From: a virus
Direction: 5' to 3' (one strand)
Virus record (IMG/VR): IMGVR_UViG_3300044624_001994
Span: 5,772 to 69,771 of that record
DNA: 64,000 bases
Part shown: piece by piece, positions 3,808 to 22,076 of the stretch
Layout of the letters: every line of letters starts with the position of its first letter
How positions within the stretch are numbered: position 1 is the first letter of the stretch
Position numbers and translations under genes: made by a program
The notes under the pieces: model-generated
Database searches by the model: none
The model's input: the letters and a program-made list of their open reading frames with translations, nothing else
Told to the model about the DNA's origin: nothing

Positions 3808-4332
3808 TTATCTATTTGCTTCAAGATTGTTGTTTTTGAAATCATCAATAATTTCATTTGAATTATAGGCATTTATGATTCTATCCTTAACTTCTTGATC
3901 ATCAACAACAGCACCGTACAAATCAGATGCAATAAAAACTTCACCTTGGATGCTATAACTTCTTAATGACCTTTTATTGTTTATTTTAATCATCCTTATT
4001 AGTCTTTGTAAATTTGCTACGTTGTTTAAGTTACTACCAACAATAACTAAGGCAGAACGCAAGTTAGCACTTAGTGTTTCATCAATAGTTGATTTTTCCG
4101 TAATGTATGATGCCAGTAAACAACTGTTTGCATAATAAAAATATGATGTTTGACGAGTTGTCCTGTTTTTAATGTCATTAAACAATTGAACTGGTTCTAT
4201 TGCTTCATATTTTTCAGTTGCATAAAAATTGCATTCGTTGTCAAAGTTTTCTTTTTCATCCATTGCTTGCAATATTGCACTAACAATACTTGATGCATTG
4301 AATGGGTTATAATTAATAGTAGTGTATTTCAT
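3808..4332 (-). CDS. Hypothetical protein
   Basis: 174 aa ORF tightly packed in the operon. Confidence 0.7.
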   Translation of the reverse strand: MKYTTINYNPFNASSIVSAILQAMDEKENFDNECNFYATEKYEAIEPVQLFNDIKNRTTRQTSYFYYANSCLLASYITEKSTIDETLSANLRSALVIVGSNLNNVANLQRLIRMIKINNKRSLRSYSIQGEVFIASDLYGAVVDDQEVKDRIINAYNSNEIIDDFKNNNLEANR

Positions 4333-4353
4333 TTTTATAAATTAAAGTGTTGT

Positions 4354-5067
4354 TTAATCAATTATTGCTAATACATCTCTACGCTGCATCCTGTAATAAG
4401 GATATTTACCTTCATTTAGTTCTTTATGATATGCCCATTCAATTGGCACATTCAATGTTCTTCTAAATAGTATTTTTTTACCGACTGGTATGTCTTGGCC
4501 TTCAGGCTTGCCATCAATATAGCTTTTGTTATGCTCACCTATAAGACGAACTATGCCCATCCCTGGCACTCGTTCATCTTTAATCCACTTTTCGAAACCG
4601 CCACCTAAAGCAATCAATTCATCTTTACTGTAATCAATTGGCTCTACAAATATCCAACCATTTAAAGGAATCTGATTTTCATTGCGCAATGCAAGATACA
4701 ATGTATCGTAATCAATCAGTAACAATTTTTTATTTTTATACTCAATGTACTCTCCATTATCCAATACATTTGCATGATTATTGTATCTAAACCATACCAT
4801 GTCACCAACAGCAAGCTGATTGCAAGTTTCAAAATCAAGACTGGTTCTTACTGATTCTTGAATAATCTTTTGACTAATAGGGTTTCTGTTTTTTCTCAAT
4901 TTCTCTATGTAGCCATGGTTGCATACAAGCCTGTCTGGAAGCATTACTACCTGTCCTGATACTGACCAATGCCTTTCGGGATTAAAGCTGTCGTACAGCT
5001 CAAATACGCCATCGCTGGTGTAATGTCCTTTAGGCATAATCAATACTTTGTTATTCGCTATCTTCAT
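4354..5067 (-). CDS. Tandem GroES-like (co-chaperonin fold) protein
   Basis: Two GroES-like units: NNKVLIMP..SGQVVMLP..LAVGDMVWFRY..IEYKNKKLLLIDYDTL and PLNGWIFVEP..GIVRLIG..IPVGKKILFR..YYRMQRRDVLAII. Confidence 0.65.
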   Translation of the reverse strand: MKIANNKVLIMPKGHYTSDGVFELYDSFNPERHWSVSGQVVMLPDRLVCNHGYIEKLRKNRNPISQKIIQESVRTSLDFETCNQLAVGDMVWFRYNNHANVLDNGEYIEYKNKKLLLIDYDTLYLALRNENQIPLNGWIFVEPIDYSKDELIALGGGFEKWIKDERVPGMGIVRLIGEHNKSYIDGKPEGQDIPVGKKILFRRTLNVPIEWAYHKELNEGKYPYYRMQRRDVLAIID

Positions 5068-8278: not shown

Positions 8279-10021
8279 CTAATGTCTTTCAGGGTACAAC
8301 ATTTTACCTAATACATTATTGTCTTGCTGCTCTTCCAACTGCAATACCCATTCGGTCAAATACAATTGCTTCGCAACACTCGCTGCATTCTTGACAGCAC
8401 TGATGACAACATCAGCAGGGTCTATAATGCCCTTGTCAATGAAATTAACATTTTCACCCTTACCCGGCAACACCCCATCAAAAAATTCAGTTTCGTCTAA
8501 AGAAATATCAATGTTTATATCTACTGCTTCAGGCTTAACAAACAAATTCTCATTGACCTTACAATAAACAACACTCAAACTTTCAACCAAAGCATTATAC
8601 CCCATAGCGTAATCGTATGTGTGCGAATCTTCGTCATGCTTAAATCCATCACGCAATGACTGCATGCCCTTTAGATAAGCTATTCCAGCACCTGGAACAA
8701 TACCACCTTTTAATGAAGCAAAACAGGCCCTCTGCACATCATCAATAACCATCTTGCGGTAATTTAACTCAATGTCACTATCTCCACCTACATAGATAGT
8801 ACCCATACCACTTACCAATCTTGATACCCGGTCACGATACATATCCCTTTCACCCTCAAACTCACTATCTTCAATTGACTGCTTTAACTTTTCTACCAAC
8901 GTATTCACAGCAGTACGCAAGCTAATCTCAATCTCAATATCATCAACAAAATCATTCTTTACATCGCTCGGTACAATAATGCACTTGTCCTTCTTCAGTA
9001 CAAACTTATCACAAACACCAAACTCCAACTTCTCCATGTAATCCAACCCTTTTCCAAAGCGGTCAAATACATTGCCAGTAATGTGTGAGAACACCTGCCT
9101 TGCACCAGTCAATACCTTCATGTCCTGCATATAGTCATATCGCATACCACCAAACGCCGGGGCCTTAACTACTAACACAGGCGCACCATTCTTCGCATTC
9201 AATGTCAATGTACTTAATGCACTCCCCTCTATATCACTTACAATCAAAACCAACGGCCTTTGTTTGCCATTTTCAATACATTGCTGCTTCCAAATAGTCA
9301 TTATCGGCTGAATTTCATCCCAATCGCTAATCTTAATGTCAGCTAACAGCACATAAGGATTAACAAGCTCTATCATTCCACTACCAGCCGACAAAAACTG
9401 CTTAAAAGGAATTGTGTGGAACACATAGCCATCAACCTTCTCAACCCACGTTTCTGGACCATTGCTGTCCTTAACCTCAATAATGCCATTCTCACCAACA
9501 CTTGTAACCAAATCACTTACCATACAACCAAGTTCACGATCGCCATTGGCACTAACAATAGCTACATTCTCTAATCGGTCCATAATGATACGACCATTAA
9601 CAACCATCAATCCCCTCTTATTCAAAATAAACTGCTTGAAATCTTCAACAGCAGTTTCAATGCCCCTGCATATTTCAAACTTGTTCACTCCCTCATAATC
9701 ACACAACGAATTTAATAACTTGTAAAGCTGATTAAACAACAATACCGTACTTGTCGTACCATCACCTACTTCCTTTACAGTCTTGCCAGCAGCATCAATA
9801 GCCATCATGGCCATCATATTGTGCAGCTTATTCTTCAAATTCAAATACCTCGCAACAGTAACACCATCCTTTGTACTCATTACACCATTAGGCGTATGTA
9901 TAGCAACTGTCCTTCCCCCAGGCCCCATCGTACTACACACAATGTCACATACATCTTGTAAGGAACTTAACATCTTTTTCTTAATGTCATCCGCATGAAT
10001 TGCATCCGTTAAATACTTCAT
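8279..10021 (-). CDS. groEL: Phage-encoded GroEL-like chaperonin
   Basis: STMGPGGRTV, TKDGVTVA, VGDGTTS, SANGD, KAPAFG, GGIVPGAG and GIIDP motifs. Confidence 0.93.
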   Translation of the reverse strand: MKYLTDAIHADDIKKKMLSSLQDVCDIVCSTMGPGGRTVAIHTPNGVMSTKDGVTVARYLNLKNKLHNMMAMMAIDAAGKTVKEVGDGTTSTVLLFNQLYKLLNSLCDYEGVNKFEICRGIETAVEDFKQFILNKRGLMVVNGRIIMDRLENVAIVSANGDRELGCMVSDLVTSVGENGIIEVKDSNGPETWVEKVDGYVFHTIPFKQFLSAGSGMIELVNPYVLLADIKISDWDEIQPIMTIWKQQCIENGKQRPLVLIVSDIEGSALSTLTLNAKNGAPVLVVKAPAFGGMRYDYMQDMKVLTGARQVFSHITGNVFDRFGKGLDYMEKLEFGVCDKFVLKKDKCIIVPSDVKNDFVDDIEIEISLRTAVNTLVEKLKQSIEDSEFEGERDMYRDRVSRLVSGMGTIYVGGDSDIELNYRKMVIDDVQRACFASLKGGIVPGAGIAYLKGMQSLRDGFKHDEDSHTYDYAMGYNALVESLSVVYCKVNENLFVKPEAVDINIDISLDETEFFDGVLPGKGENVNFIDKGIIDPADVVISAVKNAASVAKQLYLTEWVLQLEEQQDNNVLGKMLYPERH

Positions 10022-10031
10022 AGTTTTTTAT

Positions 10032-10328
10032 TTATCCGTTAACCAATATTGTTTCCATCTCTACCATGTATGCCTTAAAACAATCAATATGCTCAATCAT
10101 ACTCTTGTTGAATCCCATAATCTGCTTGCCACTATAATTGATACCCACAACACCTTCCGTTACATTCAGGATAACTTCAAAATTGCCCTTAATGTAAACA
10201 TAAAAGTCAGCTACAACCTCTCCCGATGCACCAAAGTTCTGTGTGCGACCAGACTTTACATACCCCCTGCCAGTCAAAAATGCCTCAACCTTATAAGGAC
10301 TACTACCTAATTTCTTTTCCTTTTCCAT
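10032..10328 (-). CDS. Hypothetical protein
   Basis: 98 aa in the operon. Confidence 0.6.
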   Translation of the reverse strand: MEKEKKLGSSPYKVEAFLTGRGYVKSGRTQNFGASGEVVADFYVYIKGNFEVILNVTEGVVGINYSGKQIMGFNKSMIEHIDCFKAYMVEMETILVNG

Positions 10329-10679
10329 CTAATTGTAAATTTTTTGAATTACTGAATCTATTTCTTTAAAATTTGTCTGCAAATGAACCTGATAACCACT
10401 GCCTATATGTACCTGATACAAAACATTAAAATCCATCTCACCCTTGTCATACAACCATACCATCCTAAACTGAATACTGCCATCCTCTTTCTTAATAGCA
10501 TTGGACAACGTACTTAACCTCTCCATCTCCCACTCATTAACTCCTACAACCAACACAATCCTATCCCGGTAGTCAATGTGCTTTATCTTATGTAAGTTCA
10601 TATAAAGTATAGCATGCCTCACAATACCGCCAGTATGCCCAATGAAATTATCTATAAAATCTTCATCCAATCGCATCAT
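10329..10679 (-). CDS. Hypothetical protein
   Basis: 116 aa in the operon. Confidence 0.6.
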   Translation of the reverse strand: MMRLDEDFIDNFIGHTGGIVRHAILYMNLHKIKHIDYRDRIVLVVGVNEWEMERLSTLSNAIKKEDGSIQFRMVWLYDKGEMDFNVLYQVHIGSGYQVHLQTNFKEIDSVIQKIYN

Positions 10680-10912
10680 TTTTTATTATACTTCGATACC
10701 GGTTCAACATGTAATCCAAAATAAGGCTGAACATTAAAATGCATAAACAACGTGCATATCGTACTCCACTTAGGGTCCACCATTCCATACTCAATCTTCT
10801 TAATCGTCAAAAATGATATGCCAGTAGCTTCCGCTAACTTCCTTCTCGAAAGTTTGTGTGCAGTCCTTATCATTCTTAACGAAATCCCAATAGTAATCGC
10901 ATCTTCAGCCAT
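10676..10912 (-). CDS. XRE/Cro-family helix-turn-helix regulator
   Basis: LRMIRTAHKLSRRKLAEATGISFLTIKKIEYGMVDPKWSTI is a typical HTH_3 pattern. Confidence 0.85.
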   Translation of the reverse strand: MAEDAITIGISLRMIRTAHKLSRRKLAEATGISFLTIKKIEYGMVDPKWSTICTLFMHFNVQPYFGLHVEPVSKYNKK

Positions 10913-11000
10913 TTTTGTGTGTCATATAGCGTATATTATCCCGTTTTTGGCATACTGCACTATTCTACTGAGTAGCACAGTAAGGGATATTAAAGTTGCA

Positions 11001-11031
11001 CAAAAATATAGCTTTTTTACAATTCAGCAAA
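11001..11031 (-). promoter_or_regulatory. Bacteroidota sigma-A type promoter for the leftward operon
   Basis: Minus strand TTTG (11028-11031), 19-nt spacer, TATTTTTG (11001-11008) matches the -33 TTTG / -7 TAnnTTTG consensus, ~90 nt upstream of the HTH gene. Confidence 0.7.
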
Positions 11032-11090
11032 CATTTGCTCATTTTTTTAAAAAGTTGCCTGGTATGTTTGTTAGGGGGTTTTAATATGAG

Positions 11091-11150
11091 AGCGGGGGGG
11101 CGGTCGGCGGCTCGGCGAATCGGTTTTTTACCCCACCCCCCCCAAATTCC
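11091..11150. other. GC-rich G-run/C-run element at the strand-divergence point (candidate packaging/terminus site)
   Basis: GCGGGGGGGCGGTCGGCGGCTCGGCG...CCCCACCCCCCCC in an otherwise AT-rich genome, non-coding, between divergent operons. Confidence 0.35.
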
Positions 11151-11422
11151 AGCCAAAACCTAAACCCAAATGCCCAAATGCTTTATTCATGGTCATTTGC
11201 TCCCTTGAATCCTCATTTTCCTATAATTTGCATTATGTTAAATAGAATCTGAAATGCCCATCAGCACTACGTTTCAGCGTTTGTTGTATATTATAGGGAA
11301 AAAATGTATTATATATACCGGTCAATTATCGTTCTGCTTCCTTCCATCTTGCTTTTTTTGTTCGTTCTGTTCATCCAGTCAGTTTTTTGTCTGTTCGTGA
11401 AGGATTTTTATTTGTTGCGTGG

Positions 11423-11430
11423 TATCTTTG
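11423..11430 (+). promoter_or_regulatory. Candidate -7 promoter element
   Basis: TATCTTTG (TAnnTTTG) 60 nt upstream of ORF 11491; no correctly spaced -33 element seen. Confidence 0.4.
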
Positions 11431-11490
11431 GCGAAATAAAACCACACACACAAAAAAGATCTTTTTAACTTTTTTATTTTTTCTCCCTGC

Positions 11491-11841
11491 ATGAACTTAC
11501 AAAAACTCTTAATTTGTTTAAATACCTCTGCCTTAAATGTGGCTAATTTTCATTCTTTGCCCTTAGGAGCAATTTATTTGCTTATCTTGATACAAGATAA
11601 GGATAACGCAGAAAAAACGCTTAAGACGCTTATTTTAGAGGTTGAGCAGCTAACAAACGCACACAGCTCAAAAATTGCAGCCGAAAGGCTTATAAATGAT
11701 AACTACATTGTAAGCCATAACACAAAATTTTTAATTGGTTCTTCCTTCAATAGGTTTTATTCTTTATCTGCCTTAGGTCGGGAAGTTCTTATATCATTAC
11801 AGATTGAAACAGACAAGCAGTTAAAAAGTGTTAAATTTTAG
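11491..11841 (+). CDS. Putative winged-helix (MarR-like) DNA-binding protein
   Basis: 116 aa; AAERLINDNYIV...RFYSLSALGREVL resembles a wHTH wing and terminal helix. Confidence 0.45.
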   Translation: MNLQKLLICLNTSALNVANFHSLPLGAIYLLILIQDKDNAEKTLKTLILEVEQLTNAHSSKIAAERLINDNYIVSHNTKFLIGSSFNRFYSLSALGREVLISLQIETDKQLKSVKF

Positions 11842-12122
11842 CCTTTTTTCTGTGTATTCAATAAATCTTTAAATTATTGAAAAATATTTTTTTTGACTGA
11901 AATGTAGTTCCAGCCTATGTTTCAGTCTTTTTTTGCTTGTTTCTTAGTGTATGGTTATAAAAAAAAGTTAGCTAAATATTTTTTTATTCAAATCTTTTTT
12001 CTGAATCTTTGTATGTCCTCAAGCGGAGGGCATGGATTGAAAATGTGCATATACGCAGTTCTCGTTGAACAACAGATGGCTTTTGCGTACATGGTGTAGT
12101 GGTTCTTTGACTTTGTGGGCTT

Positions 12123-12200
12123 CCTTATTTGTTGCAATTGTGCAATAGGGCAAATTTACAGAAAGGCGTAAAACGTCGGGTTCGATTCCCGAAATAAGGA
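12123..12200 (+). ncRNA. tRNA-like cloverleaf element (non-canonical)
   Basis: Acceptor stem CCTTATT/AATAAGG, arm TTGCA-ATTG-TGCAA, arm TTTAC-AGAAAGGC-GTAAA, canonical T-arm TCGGG-TTCGATT-CCCGA. Lacks a D-loop GG, a 7-nt anticodon loop and CCA. Confidence 0.55.
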
Positions 12201-12235
12201 CTATTTATTTATTCATCTTTTTAAAACTTACTACC

Positions 12236-12424
12236 ATGTTACAAAAAAAGTATTTTGCTAATCTATCAGTATTGAACGATAGAGTTTATTCTTACAACAC
12301 TTTCGTAGCTGAAATTTGCCACGAAACACAAGAGGTTAAAAGGCTGGGTTTTTGGTCAGTTACCACCAGCAAACATATAAATTATGTTGCTTCCTTGCTT
12401 AGATACAAAGTTGTTAACGCTTAA
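12236..12424 (+). CDS. Small hypothetical phage early protein
   Basis: 62 aa, VYSYNTFVAEI..WSVTTSKHINY; starts 35 nt after the tRNA-like element. Confidence 0.7.
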   Translation: MLQKKYFANLSVLNDRVYSYNTFVAEICHETQEVKRLGFWSVTTSKHINYVASLLRYKVVNA

Positions 12425-12439
12425 ATAAATTTTACTGCT

Positions 12440-12526
12440 ATGTTTATTTACATTCTTTATTATTCGGTCTGTGTTATTATGCTTATTACTTGCTTTGTTG
12501 GGTTTTACTATGCTGACAAAAAATAA
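12440..12526 (+). CDS. 28-aa hydrophobic peptide
   Basis: Manual translation MFIYILYYSVCVIMLITCFVGFYYADKK*; its TAA overlaps repeat copy 1. Confidence 0.55.
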   Translation: MFIYILYYSVCVIMLITCFVGFYYADKK

Positions 12527-12568
12527 CGGAACTTGGAGCATGGGCGGAATCGTTTTCCGCCTTCCGTT
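12525..12568 (+). repeat. Structured intergenic repeat copy 1 (type A)
   Basis: AACGGAA-CTTGGAGCATG-GGCGGAA-TCGTT-TTCCGCC-TTCCGTT. Confidence 0.97.
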
Positions 12569-12607
12569 CAAAACTTATTTATTTATTCATCTTAAAACTT
12601 AATTTTT

Positions 12608-12823
12608 ATGAAAATTATAATTGAAGACCAAACACTTTTTGGATTCCAAACTTGGGCAGGAGCAACAGAAACAAAAAATGCTATTTTAAAAGCTGATAAA
12701 GGGCATCACTTTGAACTTTTAATTGAGGAATTATACCCCGAAGGTTTAACAGATGTTCAATTAAACGACATTTTATGGCATGAGTGGGATTATATTTTCG
12801 AACAACTTGGTATAACTGAATAA
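12608..12823 (+). CDS. Small acidic hypothetical protein
   Basis: 71 aa, FQTWAGA..LTDVQLNDILW; lies between repeats 1 and 2. Confidence 0.75.
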   Translation: MKIIIEDQTLFGFQTWAGATETKNAILKADKGHHFELLIEELYPEGLTDVQLNDILWHEWDYIFEQLGITE

Positions 12824-12866
12824 ACGGAACTTGGAGCATGGGCGGAATCGTTTTCCGCCTTCCGTT
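12823..12866 (+). repeat. Structured intergenic repeat copy 2 (type A)
   Basis: Core identical to copy 1. Confidence 0.97.
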
Positions 12867-12902
12867 CAAAACTTATTTTTTCACTTTTTAATCTTAAATT
12901 TT

Positions 12903-13055
12903 ATGGAACTTTTATCTGTCATGTTAATCTCTTATTTCTGTCTGTTTTTGGTGTTTGCTTATACAGAAAGACACACCATTATTAAAAACCTATCAGATAG
13001 CAAAAAACGCTATTGGGATAGAAACAATTTCCAAGACTACAATAACTTTTTTTAA
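12903..13055 (+). CDS. Small membrane protein (50 aa)
   Basis: MELLSVMLISYFCLFLVFAY...; start moved to ATG 12903, 36 nt after the repeat. Confidence 0.55.
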   Translation: MELLSVMLISYFCLFLVFAYTERHTIIKNLSDSKKRYWDRNNFQDYNNFF

Positions 13056-13077
13056 CGCTCGCTTAAAACCTTATAAA

Positions 13078-13281
13078 ATGAAAACTTCAGAGTTAAAACA
13101 GAATTATTCAATATTTGGCAATAAAGGTACTGTTTGGTCAAATACTGCACACATTTATAAATCGGGTCAAGGTTTACTTTGTGGCACTCCTGCACTATCA
13201 ACTAATTGGGCAGCCATTGAAAAATTAGAAGAAATCGGATGTAAAGAATGTTTGGCTAAATACAAAGACGAACAAAAATAA
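13078..13281 (+). CDS. Small protein with His/Cys (possible zinc-binding) motif
   Basis: MKTSELKQ..AHIY..LLCG..GCKECLAKY; stop abuts repeat 3. Confidence 0.65.
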   Translation: MKTSELKQNYSIFGNKGTVWSNTAHIYKSGQGLLCGTPALSTNWAAIEKLEEIGCKECLAKYKDEQK

Positions 13282-13324
13282 ACGGAACTTGGAGCATGGG
13301 CGGAATCGTTTTCCGCCTTCCGTT
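13281..13324 (+). repeat. Structured intergenic repeat copy 3 (type A)
   Basis: Core identical to copy 1. Confidence 0.97.
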
Positions 13325-13360
13325 CAAAACTTATTTATTCATTCTTAAAATCTCAATTTT

Positions 13361-13672
13361 ATGAGCAGTTTAAAATTAGATAGTGTTTCAATGGTGATGT
13401 TAGATGTTAGCAAAATTCACCCTTTTATTCTTGACTTTATGGTAGGTCAAGCCGAATTTATTGACAATTCGGGAACATTAAACGAGAGTATATATTTTGC
13501 ATCATTTTTTGCCGATTTTCAGACCATATTTATTCCATTGTGGGATTCTGTTGCGACTGAATATAAAGATGGCTCAGAAACCCAATTAAAAGCCTTAGAA
13601 GCCATTAAACAATGGTATGAACTTGAAGTAATTTGTAAAAACTACTTTTATTGTATTTTAACGGGACAATAA
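13361..13672 (+). CDS. Hypothetical protein
   Basis: 103 aa between repeats 3 and 4. Confidence 0.7.
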   Translation: MSSLKLDSVSMVMLDVSKIHPFILDFMVGQAEFIDNSGTLNESIYFASFFADFQTIFIPLWDSVATEYKDGSETQLKALEAIKQWYELEVICKNYFYCILTGQ

Positions 13673-13715
13673 CGGAACTATGGAGCATGGGCGGAATCGT
13701 TTTCCGCCTTCCGTT
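13671..13715 (+). repeat. Structured intergenic repeat copy 4 (type A, +1 nt in linker)
   Basis: AACGGAA-CTATGGAGCATG-GGCGGAA-TCGTT-TTCCGCC-TTCCGTT. Confidence 0.97.
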
Positions 13716-13751
13716 CAAAACTTATTTTTTCATTCTTAAATTTTTAATCTC

Positions 13752-14039
13752 ATGTCATTACAGAAATTAAACTTTGCCAAATTAGAAGAATTTGAACCTA
13801 CAATTTACCATGAATTTGTAAATAGTCAAGGCAAACAAATTCGATTCGTTGAACATCCATTTGATGGTGATGAATACCCAATTATCATTATGTTTATGGA
13901 AGATAGAAAAGCATTCAATTCGGAATTTTACGATTTAGACGATATGCTTGCCGACCATAAAGATTACGAACCTATGTTAGTAATTGATTCAGAAGGTAAA
14001 AAACAATGTGTTTTCGGTTATGAACTAAAACTATATTAA
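13752..14039 (+). CDS. Acidic hypothetical protein
   Basis: 95 aa between repeats 4 and 5. Confidence 0.75.
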   Translation: MSLQKLNFAKLEEFEPTIYHEFVNSQGKQIRFVEHPFDGDEYPIIIMFMEDRKAFNSEFYDLDDMLADHKDYEPMLVIDSEGKKQCVFGYELKLY

Positions 14040-14082
14040 ACGGAACTTGGAGCATGGGGAGAATCGTTTTCTCCCTTCCGTT
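14039..14082 (+). repeat. Structured intergenic repeat copy 5 (type B)
   Basis: AACGGAA-CTTGGAGCATG-GGGAGAA-TCGTT-TTCTCCC-TTCCGTT. Confidence 0.97.
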
Positions 14083-14118
14083 CAAAACTTTATTTATTCA
14101 TTCTTAAAACTTAATACC

Positions 14119-14403
14119 ATGCAAAAAGCAAAAGTATTTTTGAACGTAACGGAAACCAATTTTGGCAAATTTCCAACACTACCAAACAATCAAAAAGTGA
14201 ACAGAGATACAATTGTTTACTATGCTTCAAAAGTTACTGATAAAGGAAAGGAAAGTATTTTTTTCTTGATAAGGCATAAAGATGCAAAGCTATTAAAAGA
14301 TAATAATTTTGACATTCAGTCAATTTTAGTTCCTGCTGGCTTCTATCCAGCTGCAATAAGTTACAAGTATAACGATACAAGACTTGAAATAAACTTTATT
14401 TAA
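14119..14403 (+). CDS. Hypothetical protein
   Basis: MQKAKVFLN...; start moved to ATG 14119, 36 nt after the repeat. Confidence 0.7.
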   Translation: MQKAKVFLNVTETNFGKFPTLPNNQKVNRDTIVYYASKVTDKGKESIFFLIRHKDAKLLKDNNFDIQSILVPAGFYPAAISYKYNDTRLEINFI

Positions 14404-14424
14404 AACTCACAAAATTTCGATTCT

Positions 14425-14727
14425 ATGAACTTAAACCACCATTTCTGGACAATCAATAAGCAATTCGTTTTAGATGTCTTAAAATACGAACTTGGAAGCG
14501 ATGTGACAATAATTGATGCATCTTATCGGAATGACGAATGCCCGAGTTTTGAAATTTCATATCAAGGCAAAGAAGGTAAATTATATTTGCCATCTCATTA
14601 TGAAGGTGAATTTAGCAATTATATGTTTTTCGAAGAAAAGGAATTTGAAAACATGGATGACATTAAATATTATTGTAGCTCAAATTTGGGTGAAATATTA
14701 CAATGCATCAATAATCACATTTTCTAA
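14425..14727 (+). CDS. Hypothetical protein
   Basis: 100 aa with DASYRNDECPSF motif. Confidence 0.7.
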   Translation: MNLNHHFWTINKQFVLDVLKYELGSDVTIIDASYRNDECPSFEISYQGKEGKLYLPSHYEGEFSNYMFFEEKEFENMDDIKYYCSSNLGEILQCINNHIF

Positions 14728-14744
14728 TTTTAAAACTTATTACA

Positions 14745-14942
14745 ATGCAAAAAGCTATCAAATTACTTGCAAAAGTAAAGACTAAAAGCAATTTCAGACA
14801 ATTGAATGATACCTACCTACCAATAGATGAAATGCAGGAAAGCAGGGTAACTTGCTTAGTCTATGACCATGACTACAAAAAGTACATTAAAGTAGATTTT
14901 CATCTCACAGAAGTAACAGATTTTAAAACAATTCAAAATTAA
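14745..14942 (+). CDS. Hypothetical protein
   Basis: 65 aa in the operon. Confidence 0.65.
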   Translation: MQKAIKLLAKVKTKSNFRQLNDTYLPIDEMQESRVTCLVYDHDYKKYIKVDFHLTEVTDFKTIQN

Positions 14943-14948
14943 CCTACC

Positions 14949-15122
14949 ATGACACACCAGCACGTCTTTTTAAAGACTTTATTTGCAAAGGTAATAGAAC
15001 CTACCAACAAAGGAGTAAAAGTTCTTACAATGGATAAAAAAGGATTCACAAAGACTGAAAAAACAGGCAAGATCCAGTTTTTTAGTACAGACGAATGGAA
15101 AACATTATTTAAAGCAATTTAA
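14949..15122 (+). CDS. Hypothetical protein (57 aa)
   Basis: Manual translation MTHQHVFLKTLFAKVIEPTNKGVKV...WKTLFKAI*; fills the gap between neighbours. Confidence 0.6.
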   Translation: MTHQHVFLKTLFAKVIEPTNKGVKVLTMDKKGFTKTEKTGKIQFFSTDEWKTLFKAI

Positions 15123-15133
15123 ACTCCTATTTT

Positions 15134-15373
15134 ATGACAGCAGCAGAAATTAGAACCAACACAAAAAACATGACTTTTGAACAAGCATGTGATTATATTC
15201 AAAGCATAGGTCTTGAACTGATTCCTTCAGAAAACCATCCTTTTCTGAAAAGTTGGGAAGTTAAAAACCATAAGGAATTTAGTCGAATCTCAAGTTATAT
15301 GGAATACGAACTGAAAGGCGCAAAACTTGTAAAAAGGAAAGCAGATGTATTGTTTTGTTTTCATGAATTTTAA
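15134..15373 (+). CDS. Hypothetical protein
   Basis: 79 aa; stop abuts repeat 6. Confidence 0.7.
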   Translation: MTAAEIRTNTKNMTFEQACDYIQSIGLELIPSENHPFLKSWEVKNHKEFSRISSYMEYELKGAKLVKRKADVLFCFHEF

Positions 15374-15416
15374 CGGAACTTGGAGCATTGGGGAGAATCG
15401 TTTTCTCCCTTCCGTT
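15372..15416 (+). repeat. Structured intergenic repeat copy 6 (type B)
   Basis: Linker CTTGGAGCATTG; type B stem. Confidence 0.97.
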
Positions 15417-15447
15417 CAAACTTATTTTTTAACCTGCTGACGATGAT

Positions 15448-15476
15448 TCGGTGACGATAATAGTTAGCAAAATTTT
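15448..15476 (+). repeat. Second repeat family, copy 1
   Basis: TCGGTGACGATAATAGTTAGCAAAATTTT, also at 19393 and (23-nt core) at 19426. Confidence 0.9.
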
Positions 15477-15484
15477 AATGCCTT

Positions 15485-16024
15485 ATGGAAAATTTAGAAT
15501 TATTGATTGGCAAAACTGCTGCTAAAAAAATCTTTGATAACAATGTCAATGTGATGCAATGCAGCGAGGATTCTATTCAGTATTTAATTGGGAAAAAAGC
15601 GGCTGCAAAGATAAGTGCTGCAAAGCAATTGTTTGTCGCTAAGGAAGAATCTGAAACGATAAGAAGCAGCAAGAATATTGCAGATATTTTTCGGGAATTA
15701 AAGTTTTTGGATATAGAACAAATGCACGTTTTATGTTTGAACAGAACTAACAAAGTAATAAGCAAGTTTATGCTGTCAAGTGGAGGTAGGTCGGCAACTT
15801 TATGCGATATGGCAGTATTGTATAAAAGAATATTACTTAGTAATGCCAGCGCATTTTGTGTAGTACACAACCATCCATCGGGCAACAATGCACCTTCGCA
15901 AATGGATATAGAATTGACTAAGAAAATATATCAAGCATCTTTAATTCTTGACTTAAAACTTCTTGACCATGTAATTATAGCTGGAGATGATTATTACAGT
16001 TTTTGTGACAATGGACATTTATAA
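15485..16024 (+). CDS. radC: RadC-family JAB/MPN domain protein
   Basis: EQMHVLCLN..N..VHNHPSGNNAPSQMD..LLDHVII JAMM motif. Confidence 0.92.
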   Translation: MENLELLIGKTAAKKIFDNNVNVMQCSEDSIQYLIGKKAAAKISAAKQLFVAKEESETIRSSKNIADIFRELKFLDIEQMHVLCLNRTNKVISKFMLSSGGRSATLCDMAVLYKRILLSNASAFCVVHNHPSGNNAPSQMDIELTKKIYQASLILDLKLLDHVIIAGDDYYSFCDNGHL

Positions 16025-16066
16025 CGGAACTTGGAGCATGGGGAGAATCGTTTTCTCCCTTCCGTT
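16023..16066 (+). repeat. Structured intergenic repeat copy 7 (type B)
   Basis: Core identical to copy 5. Confidence 0.97.
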
Positions 16067-16094
16067 CAAAACTTATTTTTTCACTTAATTTTTA

Positions 16095-16349
16095 ATGCTT
16101 ATGAACTATCAAAAAATGTATGAGGAATTGCTCGCTGAATTTGAGCAGTACAAAAGAGAATCTGTAAAATGGTCTGTGGATGACTTTTTAACTTACAATG
16201 ATATTTATGCCGACAAAGGTCTTTATATCACAATAGGCAGAGCAAAAAAAGCCTTAGAACACATGATTAAATCACATGATTCCGAATATGGAATTTCTTG
16301 GAGTAGTGTTGATTGTTTTTTCAATTTGTATGCTTTAAAATCTGAATAA
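16095..16349 (+). CDS. Hypothetical protein
   Basis: 84 aa, WSVDDF..HDSEYGISW. Confidence 0.7.
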   Translation: MLMNYQKMYEELLAEFEQYKRESVKWSVDDFLTYNDIYADKGLYITIGRAKKALEHMIKSHDSEYGISWSSVDCFFNLYALKSE

Positions 16350-16351
16350 CT

Positions 16352-16525
16352 ATGATGTTTTATTTTTTGATCTTGATAGGCATAGTTAAGCCACAAGACG
16401 ATGAATTGTATGCTTTTTTTACTCCCGATGGCAAAGTATATGAATACTGCTATAAGGAAGAAATTATTGAAGCAATAAAGACTGGGCAATTCTGCTATAA
16501 TGAAGATTTGCATTTAAACAAATAA
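16352..16525 (+). CDS. Hypothetical protein (57 aa)
   Basis: Manual translation MMFYFLILIGIVKPQDDELYAFFTPDGKVYEYCYKEEII...LHLNK*; stop overlaps repeat 8. Confidence 0.6.
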   Translation: MMFYFLILIGIVKPQDDELYAFFTPDGKVYEYCYKEEIIEAIKTGQFCYNEDLHLNK

Positions 16526-16568
16526 CGGAACTATGGAGCAAGGGGAGAATCGTTTTCTCCCTTCCGTT
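16524..16568 (+). repeat. Structured intergenic repeat copy 8 (type B)
   Basis: Linker CTATGGAGCAAG; type B stem. Confidence 0.97.
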
Positions 16569-16603
16569 CAAACTTATTTTTTCACTTTTTAATACTTAAA
16601 TTT

Positions 16604-17131
16604 ATGTTCGAAATTAAAGCAAAAATAGGCAATATTGACTTGTCAATGTTTGACCTTAAACAACTAACAGACAATGCTAATTCTTCTGCTGAAGCATTAC
16701 AGAAACACAATGATGATGTGTATTGTAAATTTCAAGAATTCGTTTTAGATTTTATCGAAAAAACAAATTCAGTTTTAGCTAAAATTGGATTAGACGAGAG
16801 ATTTATAAATACAAATTACCATATTAGAGAAAATTATATATGTTCACGTTCTAATGGTCTTTATTGTAAATATGATATTGGTCATGGAAGGGCATCAATC
16901 TATCTTTATTTTGAAACCGACAAAATAAGTGATAAATTAACTTATGATTTTAAAGGTCAAATAATAATAAGAAAAAGCTGGAATAATAATTTTATAAGAG
17001 AAGAATATGACTTAGAATCAGTAGGTCAGGTTTTTGAACTTGGAGCAGATGTTATTAAATTTTTTATAATTGATAGAGATGTTACTGATAATGATGCAAG
17101 ACGGAAATTAGAAAAGGAATTGACCTACTAA
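16604..17131 (+). CDS. Hypothetical protein
   Basis: 175 aa between repeats 8 and 9. Confidence 0.75.
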   Translation: MFEIKAKIGNIDLSMFDLKQLTDNANSSAEALQKHNDDVYCKFQEFVLDFIEKTNSVLAKIGLDERFINTNYHIRENYICSRSNGLYCKYDIGHGRASIYLYFETDKISDKLTYDFKGQIIIRKSWNNNFIREEYDLESVGQVFELGADVIKFFIIDRDVTDNDARRKLEKELTY

Positions 17132-17175
17132 ACGGAACTATGGAGCATGGGGAGAATCGTTTTCTCCCTTCCGTT
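17131..17175 (+). repeat. Structured intergenic repeat copy 9 (type B)
   Basis: Linker CTATGGAGCATG; type B stem. Confidence 0.97.
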
Positions 17176-17211
17176 CAAACTTATTTTTTCACTTTTTTAA
17201 TCTTTAATTTT

Positions 17212-17748
17212 ATGGCAAATATGTGTTATAACTATGTTGTGTTCAGCGGTGAACCAGCAAACATTGAAAAACTCAATCAAAGGATTGATGAAGCTATTGA
17301 AACTGAAAAAAGGACTCAATTAGCACAACAGATTCATAGTCACGAAGAAATTATTGATAGGCATTTTTTTGATTTAAGCAAAGACATGACTGATGAAACA
17401 GAACTGAATATCATGTATGACACAAAATGGGATAGCAATATCTTAGATGTTGCCAAAATTTGTGTTGAATTTGGAGTAACAGCTAATCATGAATTCAGTG
17501 AAACATCTTCTTACATCTATGGAAGCTGTTCTATTGATGAAAAAGGTAATGTCATTGAAGATACTGCACCAGCTGAATTTTGTGATTTGATTGATTATGA
17601 CGAAGAAAAAGATGTTTATATCTACAATGGCGATGAATGGACTTTTCAAGATGAAATTTTTGAATGGGAATATGAAAGATGGAAAGCAAAGCAACCCGAA
17701 CAATATTGGTTAAAGACTTATAATCTTAATGATTTTATAAACAAATAA
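17212..17748 (+). CDS. DUF1281/YubB-like ferredoxin-fold protein
   Basis: MANMCYNYVVFSG N-terminus and YDTKW motif resemble this family; start moved to ATG 17212. Confidence 0.55.
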   Translation: MANMCYNYVVFSGEPANIEKLNQRIDEAIETEKRTQLAQQIHSHEEIIDRHFFDLSKDMTDETELNIMYDTKWDSNILDVAKICVEFGVTANHEFSETSSYIYGSCSIDEKGNVIEDTAPAEFCDLIDYDEEKDVYIYNGDEWTFQDEIFEWEYERWKAKQPEQYWLKTYNLNDFINK

Positions 17749-17791
17749 CGGAACTATGGAGCAAGGGGAGAATCGTTTTCTCCCTTCCGTT
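17747..17791 (+). repeat. Structured intergenic repeat copy 10 (type B)
   Basis: Core identical to copy 8. Confidence 0.97.
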
Positions 17792-17824
17792 CTAACTTAT
17801 TTTTTAATTTTAATACTTAATTAC

Positions 17825-18943
17825 ATGAAAATTCAAATCGTAAAAGCAGAATTGCTTGAAGCAATCAAGACAGTTATCAAAATTGTTCCTTCTAAAGCAA
17901 TTATCCCCGACATTGAAAACATTTGTTTGCAGGGTAAAAATGGTATTGTTACCATCTCCGGTACTGACCTCACTACTTTTGTAAAGTACACATTGAATCA
18001 GAAATCTTACTTTGAAGGTAATTTTGAATTTCTGATTGATGCAGCAAAATTTGACAAAATTGCTTCTCTGTGCGATAATTATGTTGAAATGGAGGTAATG
18101 GGTGACAAGTGCAAAATAACTACCTTACAAGGTAATACAACGCTTCCTATATATGAAGCAAGTTGTTTTCCCGATAAGAAAGAAATAGGAGATAAAATAG
18201 CTGATTTTAGCGAAAAGCAAAATGTCTTTTTTCACATCAAAAAAGCTATTGGCTATGTAAGTACAGATGAATTGAGAATAAATATGTGCGGAGTTCATCT
18301 TGATATTGTTGATAATACCTTGTCAGTACAAGCAACAAACGCAAATATTCTTTATCTACATGATACAGAATGCGTCAGTAAAACCAACACAAGTGTTATT
18401 ATTCCTGCAAAGACTTGCAAGATCTTGACAAGTTTAGAAAATGATGATTTTTCTCTTTATCAAATATCTGGAACTGAATATAGATTCCAATATCAAACGA
18501 TTGACATATACTTTACTGCAACAGATGCAAAATACCCACAAGTAAGAAGCATTATTCCAAAGCAAAGTGACCATATCAATGTATTCAGTTTTAAGAAACA
18601 AGATATTATTAAGACGATAAGTGCAGTAATGATAACTGCCAATATTCAAACAAACGGAATCCAATTCTATGTTGGTGATGAAACAGCTAAAATCAAATCT
18701 GTTGACCTTGATAATAACATGGAAAGTGAAATGGAGCTGAAAGTTAGTATTGACAAAAAAGTTGATGATGTCTTTAAATTTGCTGTCAATGGTAAGTTTA
18801 TTACAGATGTTATAAACAGCATAAATTTGCCAAATTCGGAACAAATTACTTTTTACATGAGAGAGTTAAACAAGGCATTGTTATTCTATACAGATGACTT
18901 TAAAACGCTTCACATAGTAATGCCAATCGTATTTAATGACTAA
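17825..18943 (+). CDS. dnaN: DNA polymerase III beta subunit (sliding clamp) homolog
   Basis: 372 aa from MKIQIVKAELLEAI; GTDL, STDELRINMCGV, ATN, IIPAK, KYPQVRSIIP, VNGKFI and C-terminal IVMPI match the clamp pattern. Confidence 0.9.
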   Translation: MKIQIVKAELLEAIKTVIKIVPSKAIIPDIENICLQGKNGIVTISGTDLTTFVKYTLNQKSYFEGNFEFLIDAAKFDKIASLCDNYVEMEVMGDKCKITTLQGNTTLPIYEASCFPDKKEIGDKIADFSEKQNVFFHIKKAIGYVSTDELRINMCGVHLDIVDNTLSVQATNANILYLHDTECVSKTNTSVIIPAKTCKILTSLENDDFSLYQISGTEYRFQYQTIDIYFTATDAKYPQVRSIIPKQSDHINVFSFKKQDIIKTISAVMITANIQTNGIQFYVGDETAKIKSVDLDNNMESEMELKVSIDKKVDDVFKFAVNGKFITDVINSINLPNSEQITFYMRELNKALLFYTDDFKTLHIVMPIVFND

Positions 18944-21041: not shown

Positions 21042-21219
21042 ATTCTACAAATTGTTCCCACGTTTTTTTTCTCATGTGCTTTGTGTAATCCTTTCGAATA
21101 AAAGCATCTTTTACTGGATGGTAAACATATTCATGTTTGTTTATTTTAATGCCACCAAAACGAACACCAAGGCTTATGTATGGCTGTTGTGATGCATTAA
21201 ATATTATGATTGCTTCCAT
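21001..21219 (-). CDS. Hypothetical protein
   Basis: 72 aa in the operon. Confidence 0.6.
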   Translation of the reverse strand: MEAIIIFNASQQPYISLGVRFGGIKINKHEYVYHPVKDAFIRKDYTKHMRKKTWEQFVEFAKQQENENTDKP

Positions 21220-22076
21220 TATAGTAAACCTGACATTTCCATTGCACGAACAAGACGAGTAAGACCAATGCCACCACCATAACGAGGAAAGAATTTATGT
21301 TCTAAAAATTGATTCAATTCTTCTATTACTCTGTCATATCCAAACAATTCGAATAGTTTTTCTGAGTATTTTCCACCTTCAATAGCAAAAAATGTTTCTC
21401 GCATTTGCTCTACATCGCAACTTCTTTCAGCTGAACCAATTGTTTCCTGCCCATGCAGAATTACATCGCACTTACTTGCTGTTGCGCCAGCACGTTTCAT
21501 ATTCCAAAAAGGATTTGTATGCTCCGGAAATAGGGTAAGGAAAAATACTGGACTTTCATTTTGGCTGATAAGACCTTCTGTTGCAGAATCAATTTCAAGT
21601 ACATTGTATTTCTTTTGCATCAGCTCATAAGTTGAGATGACATATTCTTCAGTAAAACCAAGAAATTGCAAAAGTTCTGTTTCTAATGCAATCATCTGTT
21701 CGTAATTTCCTGCAGATTCAAATTCAAACATCGGGAATATTTTGTGATGCCTTCCGGGTTCGGGATTTTTCTCATTGCGATAGCTTGTAGTTACACAGCA
21801 AAATCCTTTTTGTTCTGGAAAGGTAAGCAGATAATCTTCCAATGTCATTTGACCTGTCTGTGGTAATGGCCATTCAAGACCATCATAAGAAAACTTTGCA
21901 ATTGAATGCGGATTTTCGCAAGCTGCAAGAATAGCAAGTCTGTTCTGTGGATGAACTTCAGCAAATCCATTTTTTCTAATAAAGAATGATCGGAGTAATT
22001 CAGTTACTTTAGTGTACTTTTCAAATGGGATTTGTGGGTACATCTGTGAATTTAAAAAATCTGATAGCATTTTCAA
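21219..22076 (-). CDS. Class II (Asp/Asn/Lys-type) aminoacyl-tRNA synthetase catalytic-domain homolog lacking the anticodon-binding domain
   Basis: Motif 2 SYRNEKNPEPGRHHKIFPMFEFE, GQETIGSAER, motif 3 YGGGIGLTRL; only 285 aa, no N-terminal OB fold. Confidence 0.85.
   Translation of the reverse strand: MKMLSDFLNSQMYPQIPFEKYTKVTELLRSFFIRKNGFAEVHPQNRLAILAACENPHSIAKFSYDGLEWPLPQTGQMTLEDYLLTFPEQKGFCCVTTSYRNEKNPEPGRHHKIFPMFEFESAGNYEQMIALETELLQFLGFTEEYVISTYELMQKKYNVLEIDSATEGLISQNESPVFFLTLFPEHTNPFWNMKRAGATASKCDVILHGQETIGSAERSCDVEQMRETFFAIEGGKYSEKLFELFGYDRVIEELNQFLEHKFFPRYGGGIGLTRLVRAMEMSGLL

Follow-up and report, generated by a model that had tools for sequence, protein, structure and literature searches.

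Slot zero, an intergenic element of 78 nucleotides (nt) at positions 12123–12200 (+), reproduces the acceptor and T half of a transfer RNA (tRNA) at the head of an array of ten repeats. The stretch analysed here, called the window, comprises 64,000 nt (bases 5772–69771 of the 69,771-bp IMG/VR virus record IMGVR_UViG_3300044624_001994, which has a 127-bp terminal overlap). It is highly probable that slot zero is a selected, RNA-level tRNA mimic within a class of intergenic elements. It copies the upper half of a tRNA, with the tRNA-specific features retained and the decoding features lost. Among the occupants of 11 intergenic slots it is also the largest and the closest to a tRNA; the remaining ten slots hold 47-nt minihelices whose T-loop has drifted. 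The coaxial acceptor/T helix, the T-loop, a D-loop-like GG in the small members (hereafter minis) and a trailer resembling that of a tRNA gene are kept across the class. The favoured reading of these elements, to which we give about an even chance, is that they are tRNA-mimicking punctuation signals at which the RNase P and RNase Z of the host would cut a polycistronic transcript.

Structure of the slot-zero element

Direct reading of the sequence and RNAfold confirmed the tRNA-like cloverleaf that the first-pass annotation had described, with its 7-bp acceptor stem, two internal arms and canonical T-arm. The element begins with the 5′ acceptor strand CCTTATT (12123–12129), followed by an 18-nt hairpin in the D-arm position (12130–12147; 7 bp and the 4-nt loop ATTG), seven unpaired nucleotides, a second 18-nt hairpin in the anticodon-arm position (12155–12172; UUUAC/GUAAA with an 8-nt loop) and ACG. 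The T-arm (12176–12192) consists of TCGGG (12176–12180), the loop TTCGATT (12181–12187) and CCCGA (12188–12192). Its 3′ strand runs directly into the 3′ acceptor strand AATAAGG (12193–12199), in the manner of a tRNA, and A12200 occupies the discriminator position (12193–12200 in all). All seven acceptor pairs are Watson-Crick pairs, and T12122 could add an eighth with A12200. This four-helix fold is the minimum-energy structure given by RNAfold (−20.2 kcal/mol). All parts lie on the plus strand, the strand of the flanking open reading frames (ORFs).

A12200 and the ATG at 12236 are separated by 35 nt. The intervening trailer and leader (12201–12235, +) opens with CTA and a T-rich spacer and then turns A-rich up to the start codon of the first downstream ORF (12236–12424, +; 62 amino acids (aa), weak matches to phrog_5643 and phrog_4264, both of unknown function). 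The 18-mer TATTTATTTATTCATCTT at 12202–12219 is present again downstream of repeat copy 1, and a BLAST comparison of 12100–12240 with the phage's own genome located the leader at two repeat copies. The 35-nt distance and the leader common to slot zero and repeat copy 1, both pointed out earlier, are therefore correct. Positions 12023–12200 are identical in one contig of another lake strain. In lake strains (two runs) the leader has lost 4 nt at 12210 and 2 nt at 12221, and no indel inside slot zero is among the indels listed from the lake-strain DNA contigs.

The strict combination of a TTCGAYT loop, a fully paired 5-bp T stem and an abutting, fully paired 7-bp acceptor within 130 nt, a definition set after slot zero had been seen, occurs once in the 69.8-kb genome. 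First-order Markov simulations gave a mean of 0.013 occurrences, with at least one in 4 of 300 simulations. The pattern GGTTCRANTCC occurs twice in the genome, in the true tRNA-Met and in slot zero, and the reversed control pattern does not occur. The motif of plant-mitochondrial t-elements, GGTTCRANYCC, is present in slot zero as GGTTCGATTCC at 12179–12189, inside a non-canonical fold.

The tRNA-Met (CAT; genome c1440–1512, no encoded CCA) is the only tRNA that ARAGORN finds in this phage. It lies 4.3 kb beyond the left end of the window, between ORFs of 502 and 353 aa. The order in its slot is ORF stop, GC hairpin, tRNA, T-CTATTTTT..., an A/T-rich leader and ATG. The layout is the same at slot zero, which carries A-CTATTTATTT... 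where the tRNA-Met carries T-CTATTTTT..., and the CTATTT trailer is common to both.

Slot zero is nevertheless not a normal decoding tRNA, as had been proposed. It has the 7-bp acceptor and the abutting 5-bp T stem with 7-nt loop of a canonical tRNA. It lacks the 5-bp anticodon stem with a 7-nt loop and the G18 G19 of the D-loop: the first hairpin has no GG, and the second, with its 8-nt loop, is not usable as an anticodon arm. CCA is also absent. ARAGORN found no tRNA gene in the whole window with default settings and nothing at slot zero with the options -ps and -ps90. With -ps80 it returned 'tRNA-???' with a 4-nt anticodon at slot zero, one of 20 low-grade calls, so that the permissive search that had been suggested yielded only low-grade or implausible calls there. 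The Rfam tRNA model matched nowhere in the window at its gathering score of 29 bits, and nowhere in 11800–12600 even at E ≤ 10.

Other identities were considered and rejected. Neither ARAGORN nor Rfam called a transfer-messenger RNA (tmRNA) at slot zero, and a search for any curated RNA family (tmRNA, riboswitch, Y-RNA or other) gave no Rfam match at the gathering score and only chance-level matches at E ≤ 10. An intron-containing tRNA-Cys called by ARAGORN -i -ps at 11762–12201, with a 350-nt intron, has an acceptor mismatch and a poor D arm. Its 5′ half lies inside the ORF 11491–11841, and the same mode gave two further implausible intron calls. A 3′ fragment of a tRNA gene, as found at the core of attachment sites, does not fit, because a complementary 5′ acceptor strand exists 63 nt upstream of the 3′ strand. 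No integrase was found in the 48 proteins or protein halves scanned, which represent part of the ORFs.

Equivalent elements in related phages

A chaperonin gene (8279–10021, −) lies 2 kb from slot zero and has phage relatives of 33–94% identity, the nearest four (P0001–P0004) at 61–94%. The relatives compared by DNA were G001 (35%, 70.9 kb), G002 (46%, 59.6 kb) and the metagenome contigs L085, L087 and L088, together with G003 (50.3 kb). Megablast and blastn searches of the phage collection gave no DNA match of value to this phage, and the exact repeat and the exact T-arm/acceptor patterns found nothing in IMG/VR. As in the window, the T-arm elements of the relatives lie in intergenic slots and on the strand that diverges from the chaperonin gene. 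Four phages hold 18 such elements (one in the window, four in L087, six in L088 and seven in G001), all on the ORF strand. Those of G001 are six 58-nt repeats and a differing seventh element, and those of L087 are a divergent first element and three repeats of 49–51 nt.

Comparison of the elements showed that the TTCGAYT loop is present in all 18 despite differing stems. A constant loop with varying stems suggests that the T-loop is recognized by its sequence, as it would be by enzymes that process tRNA. The closing acceptor helix is fully paired in 16 of 17 elements, with at least eight unrelated acceptor sequences, and CTA(A) follows directly in almost all. In every testable case (17 of 17) an ATG-initiated ORF of at least 49 aa starts 31–48 nt after the T stem. 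Both sides are altered in 8 of 13 pairs in L088 and in 2 of 12 pairs in L087. G001 shows only one-sided U-A/U-G and C-G/U-G swaps, which pair in the RNA of this strand and would be A-C mismatches on the other, and these G-U-preserving changes argue for selection on the RNA of the coding strand. Conservation of the stems in related phages, on which the first-pass annotation had made its proposal depend, is thus present at the level of the element class, with compensatory changes. The first slot of G001 holds a plain hairpin followed by CTA, and G003 combines two T-arm minis with plain hairpins that have CTACAAA behind them, so that T-arm elements are interchangeable with simple hairpins in these slots.

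As a control, 79 other chaperonin-bearing viral loci (1.14 Mb, 55 ARAGORN tRNAs) were scanned for a T-arm with a closing helix. The scan gave 52 hits, 45 of them in tRNAs, and the remaining seven all lie in L033, inside a cluster of 22 tRNA genes. L033 is an unrelated 75-kb viral contig. Its seven elements (8811–13223, +) are not called by ARAGORN without the intron option; their acceptor is AGTCAGG or a close variant (one differs), the T-arm is shared by six of the seven, and the inserts are 71–126 nt long.

Unusual tRNAs were also seen in two of the relatives. L085:2335–2447 (+), downstream of the chaperonin gene, holds a tRNA with a canonical D arm that ARAGORN -i calls as an ochre suppressor (tta) with a 39-nt intron. 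The tRNA-like element of G002 (L100:4146–4266, +) is 121 nt long and has a slipped T-arm and a terminator-like hairpin behind it; it reaches only 13.7 bits with the Rfam tRNA model.

The ten repeats and a family of small elements

The ten intergenic repeats downstream of slot zero (12525–17808, +) start at 12525, 12823, 13281, 13671, 14038, 15372, 16023, 16524, 17131 and 17747 and flank cassettes of one to four small genes. Each forms a 47-nt minihelix of ACGGAA, an 11-nt linker with UGG, GGCGGA, AUCGUUU, UCCGCC and UUCCGU, which is the architecture of the mini family with an altered T-loop. RNAalifold showed a 6-bp outer stem and, inside it, 13 unpaired 5′ alignment columns (11–12 nt per copy) before an 8-bp hairpin; the 3′ strands of hairpin and outer stem adjoin. 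Two of the 14 pairs are altered on both sides, in four of the ten copies.

The mini family was recovered from IMG/VR with the pattern of a T-arm, 10–12 nt and CTAA, which gave at least 125 matches at no fewer than 119 loci (L148–L266); this raw scan is dominated by ordinary tRNAs, and the matches listed give no estimate of prevalence. Among the 125 matches listed, 67 lie outside ARAGORN tRNA and tmRNA calls. An acceptor of 6 bp or more, paired throughout, lies within 70 nt in 39 of these 67, compared with 5.2 when the upstream sequence was shuffled. Many minis are ~40–50 nt long and consist of a 6-bp acceptor, (A)AUGGUU, ~4 nt, a 6-bp T stem, TTCGAYT, (N)CUAA, an A/T-rich leader and ATG, with conservation of the GG in the D-loop-like linker. 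No Rfam family matches them at the gathering score. They lie upstream of ORFs in many unrelated viral contigs, some with a Shine-Dalgarno motif; examples are L176:2537–2583, L176:2889–2935, L216:2031–2077 and L185:2060–2105. The counts among the matches listed suggest that the class is widespread. Slot zero shares the setting of the minis, being intergenic and on the ORF strand, with CTA(A/T) after the closing helix and an ORF start within ~50 nt.

A covariance model, R1, was built from nine minis, eight of which come from seven IMG/VR contigs outside the clade and one from G003. It describes a 6-bp acceptor, a linker of ~11 nt with AUGGU, a 6-bp T stem, TTCGAYT and a CUAA trailer, and one row of its seed alignment is off by one column. 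R1 found the six elements of L088 at E 5e-9 to 3.5e-7, and the second element of G003, three elements of L087 and the odd element of G001 at E 1e-5 to 0.01; the G001 repeats were matched weakly. It gave no match at E ≤ 0.01 in the 1.14-Mb control, with its 55 true tRNAs, or in a further 358 kb. When the region 11800–18000 was searched with the filters off, R1 aligned with all ten window repeats over model positions 1–47, nine at 20.1–21.5 bits and one at 15.8 bits. The repeats are aligned as ACGGAA, CUUGGAGCAUG, GGCGGA, AUCGUUU, UCCGCC, UUCCGU and UCAAA. Because a model of the minis aligns full-length with all ten repeats, the positional equivalence of slot zero and the repeats, first noticed from their leader, is supported; the equivalent slots of the relatives likewise hold T-arm/acceptor elements.

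A proposed role in transcript processing

RNase P, RNase Z and the CCA-adding enzyme read the acceptor/T helix and the elbow of tRNA. In the favoured reading, the elements would be transcribed within a polycistronic mRNA, RNase P would cut before C12123, and RNase Z would cut after A12200, possibly followed by the addition of CCA. The cuts would set the 5′ end of the downstream message ~35 nt ahead of its start codon and would part the cistrons, leaving structured, nuclease-resistant ends. Mitochondrial tRNA punctuation and the plant-mitochondrial t-elements would thereby have a counterpart in a phage. Transcription and cleavage of slot zero and the repeats, and the enzymes acting on them, are predicted here from sequence.

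A broader reading, which we regard as tentative, is that several phage lineages share an undescribed class of 40–80-nt mimics of the upper half of tRNA, set immediately ahead of genes, many with a D-loop-like AUGGU and with CUAA behind them. These mimics would recruit the RNase P, RNase Z and CCA-adding enzymes of the host for the punctuation of early polycistronic mRNAs, in the way that mitochondria employ tRNAs. The excised, CCA-tailed minis might in addition serve as decoys for host factors attacking the acceptor ends of tRNA, and the array of the window, with one cloverleaf-like element and ten minis with altered T-loops, would be in transition.

Several observations weigh against processing by tRNA enzymes. 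Of the 24 sequencing runs listed, none is recorded as RNA. By energy alone the fold of slot zero is modest, with a z-score of −2.12 and 8 of 200 shuffles equally stable or better. Slot zero starts with C, whereas position 1 of a tRNA is usually G. AUCGUUU replaces UUCGAUU in all ten repeats, so that most slots would be without a canonical T-loop if the enzymes read it. R1 matched only the T-arm of slot zero (model positions 20–34, 12177–12191; 15.7 bits, E 0.44 or 0.018). It also matched an antisense site at 13773–13818 (−), inside the ORF 13752–14039, with 22.8 bits in spite of four non-canonical pairs and the loop TTCAAAT. Matches of ~21 bits can therefore arise by chance and are no proof alone, and the E-values are rough. 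The antisense site is probably a chance match, and the matches of the repeats gain weight from their position, strand and perfect pairing. Finally, T-arm elements were found in only 2 of the 41 IMG/VR contigs that carry CCTATAATTTGCATTATGTTAA, a noncoding motif upstream of the plus-strand genes, in the stretches examined.

Organelles and a few eukaryotic transcripts are known to have processing signals of tRNA shape in mRNA; as an organizing principle of phage operons, such signals were not found described. A literature search, with most subscription journals outside its reach, found no description of such elements in phages. If RNase P and RNase Z do cut at the elements, this would explain how phages of hosts without Shine-Dalgarno pairing split long early transcripts into stable, translatable messages. 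Early-gene cassettes of uncultured phages could then be annotated by the sequence signature of the elements, bacterial tRNA-processing enzymes would gain natural substrates of minimal size, and synthetic operons could use the elements as compact sites at which RNA is cut.

Alternative explanations

The elements might instead be structural modules of the 5′ untranslated region that involve no tRNA enzymes, in which a compact fold shortly before each start prevents the A/U-rich initiation region from pairing with coding RNA upstream, protects a 5′ end, or both. We consider this unlikely, but it accounts for a number of observations. A leader without structure matters in translation initiation of the Flavobacterium type, and the host apparently initiates without Shine-Dalgarno pairing: among 51 genes a single one has a Shine-Dalgarno-like motif, and positions −13 to −11 are enriched in A (37, 35 and 32 of the 51 genes). 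In the light of work on Flavobacterium, these two features suggest a Bacteroidota host; the host is probably a member of this phylum, and a match to the crAss muzzle C-terminal domain points likewise. The plain hairpins in the first slot of G001 and in G003, the window repeats without a canonical T-loop and the narrow spacing of 31–48 nt to the ATG would also fit an insulating structure. However, such a structure requires no specific loop, yet the TTCGAYT loop is constant in all 18 elements with differing stems. The GG-containing linker of the minis is conserved as well, and the CTA trailer is the same as that of the real tRNA gene.

It is rather unlikely that the elements are terminator/promoter cassettes that double as recombination sites for the shuffling of small genes, like the PeSLs of T4-type phages, with the tRNA-like fold being one variant of a stem-loop. 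The genes around slot zero and the repeats are indeed small and variable, and cassettes are exchanged at these motifs. In other lake strains, contigs run from one repeat straight into another (from 13350 back to 12898), and the genes differ beyond 12901 and 13350 and ahead of 12524 and 12872. Exchangeable cassettes, here of one to four genes, are therefore delimited by the repeats. However, shuffling at repeats may follow simply from the existence of repeats. The PeSL arrangement of an early promoter and a terminator hairpin in each unit was not found, in a promoter scan that covered the sigma-70 type: sigma-70-like promoter matches are not enriched (40 found, 40.0 expected), and no repeat is listed as terminator-like. 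Reading of the leaders revealed no TTTG or TAnnTTTG, the Bacteroidota promoter consensus, and one leader of L088 measures 27 nt from the helix end to the ATG and leaves no room for a downstream promoter. The G-U-preserving changes also argue for selection at the level of RNA on the coding strand.

A decayed tRNA gene, that is, a pseudogene without present function in a place where some relatives keep a real tRNA, is quite unlikely and could account for slot zero alone. The four-helix, cloverleaf-like topology and the length are those of a tRNA. The contig L112, which bears CCTATAATTTGCATTATGTTAA, has a genuine tRNA-Cys 635–706 nt downstream of this motif, a distance comparable with the ~900–980 nt of slot zero, and odd tRNAs occur nearby in L085 and G002. 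However, the parts read by processing enzymes, 12 pairs and the loop, are intact without a mismatch, whereas the remainder is unrecognizable. Slot zero shares its leader with a functional-looking array, its sequence from 12023 to 12200 is identical in another lake strain, and the equivalent slots of the relatives hold selected elements.

Very unlikely as the main role is the release of CCA-tailed tRNA-mimic RNAs that would act as decoys or sponges for host factors acting on the acceptor ends or elbows of tRNA, such as defence toxins modifying the 3′ ends of tRNA, or as substrates of a phage enzyme. The retained acceptor/T half, together with the D-loop-like GG of the minis, could form an elbow. 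The arrays are of the early type with small genes, among which anti-defence genes are common. The phage also encodes a 283-aa catalytic core of a class II aminoacyl-tRNA synthetase (aaRS) without an anticodon-binding domain. However, G001 and G002 have no match to this aaRS-like gene, although G001 has seven elements, and homologues of it occur in cyanophages. Nothing ties the elements to any defence system, and a decoy presupposes the processing that the favoured reading proposes.

Chance resemblance without biological meaning is suggested by the modest z-score and by the ~0.5 loose T-arm-plus-acceptor hits expected per genome, one AT-rich example of which lies at genome 25285–25371, but is extremely improbable given the 0.013 occurrences expected under the strict definition, the intergenic coding-strand position of slot zero with the leader of the array, and the filling of equivalent slots in relatives by the same class of element.

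Genomic setting and other features

The genes to the left of 11160 and to the right of 19757 are on the minus strand, and a plus-strand block of small genes lies between them. A terminator-like hairpin with a T run precedes slot zero (11895–11927, +), and no other terminator-like site is listed on the plus strand until 18958, after the beta-clamp gene. Slot zero thus heads a terminator-free block of ~6.8 kb. A possible Bacteroidota-type promoter, TTTG, 22 nt and TGACTTTG, was noticed on reading at 12082–12115 (+); it is weak, its spacing exceeding that of the consensus. If used, it would start transcription at ~12121–12123 and so place slot zero at the very 5′ end of the primary transcript.

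The cargo of the array includes a RadC-like JAB-domain protein (15485–16024, +), a DUF1281_C ferredoxin-like protein (17212–17748, +) and a DNA polymerase III beta clamp (17825–18943, +). The likely start of the clamp gene is the ATG at 17825, downstream of the last repeat, and a search with the protein found no relative in IMG/VR.

The 22-nt motif CCTATAATTTGCATTATGTTAA lies at 11220–11241 (+), upstream of the plus-strand block, and occurs once in the window. It is present exactly, with two free positions, in 41 IMG/VR contigs of 5–185 kb, and stands upstream of the arrays in G001, G002 and L087. Runs of G and of C at ~11078–11145 precede it. The motif could serve as an early promoter or as an origin, or could specify a small RNA. 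Strain variation is dense at 11269–11544 (at least 40 substitutions in ~275 nt), across a putative 54-aa ORF (11304–11468) that may be non-coding.

The aaRS-like protein is encoded at 21219–22070 (−) and consists of the catalytic core of a class II (Asp/Lys/Asn-type) enzyme alone (Pfam E 8e-10, phrog_29758 E 1e-87). Homologues of ~50% identity, annotated as 'tRNA ligase', are found in Prochlorococcus phages P-SSM2, P-SSM5 and P-SSM7, and no relative was found in the PDB by sequence. A link between this gene and the elements was considered and rejected on its distribution, as described above. Two large minus-strand ORFs encode a 5092-aa polyvalent protein with ddrB-ParB, SNF2/ResIII helicase and LPD38 domains (37245–52523; Pfam) and a 1615-aa protein with the crAss muzzle C-terminal domain (55190–60037; Pfam). 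A crAss-type virion RNA polymerase was considered as a reader of the slots and rejected, the DFDxD motif being absent from the six frames of the genome.

In Cellulophaga phage phi14:2 (NC_021806; L104), ARAGORN calls a tmRNA with the tag GSSVQKLAMVA in the unannotated early intergenic region (4031–4500). The call scores 46 bits with Rfam, compared with a gathering score of 47. A second tRNA-like element with GGTTCGAATCC, which is not called, lies near 1829 (~1763–1850). A preprint on phi14:2 describes the early intergenic region as a highly transcribed non-coding RNA of unknown function and reports no common motif at the early promoters.

Comparison with known systems

Mimicry of the acceptor and T-arm without a decoding anticodon arm is a property of the tRNA-like domain of tmRNA and of the 3′ tRNA-like structures of plant RNA viruses. 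The viral structures stand at genome 3′ ends, are CCA-terminated and are aminoacylated, whereas slot zero is internal, lies upstream of ORFs and has no CCA. The mascRNA of MALAT1, a tRNA-like fold within a long transcript, is a substrate of RNase P and RNase Z and sets where the adjoining RNA ends. Unlike the elements described here, it is eukaryotic, nuclear and single, and it marks the 3′ end of a non-coding RNA.

The PeSLs of T4-type phages are described as conserved promoter-terminator motifs between variable small genes (PMC2839356, PMC4122927). They resemble the present array as composite motifs between small variable genes of early type with cassette shuffling at the motifs. However, a PeSL combines a promoter with a terminator hairpin, whereas neither signature was found here and the structure mimics a tRNA.

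In mitochondrial tRNA punctuation, polycistronic transcripts are cut by excising tRNA-shaped units between genes (PMC8601606). The tRNA-Met of this phage is likewise placed between two ORFs. The mitochondrial units are functional tRNAs, whereas 11 of the 12 units of the phage (slot zero and the ten repeats, with the tRNA-Met as the exception) cannot decode.

The closest described system appears to be the plant-mitochondrial t-element. The t-elements carry GGTTCRANYCC in non-canonical tRNA-like folds that adjoin mRNA ends inside longer transcripts, where cuts by RNase P and RNase Z have been proposed and partly shown, and acceptor-stem-like stem-loops have been proposed as equivalent signals for these enzymes (Forner et al. 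2007, PMC1920247). The t-elements are organellar and occur as scattered single copies, whereas the elements described here belong to phages, occupy up to 11 slots, are often ~47 nt long and are known from sequence alone. However, the motif and the non-canonical fold of the t-elements are like those of slot zero, and their simple stem-loops parallel the ten repeats of the array.

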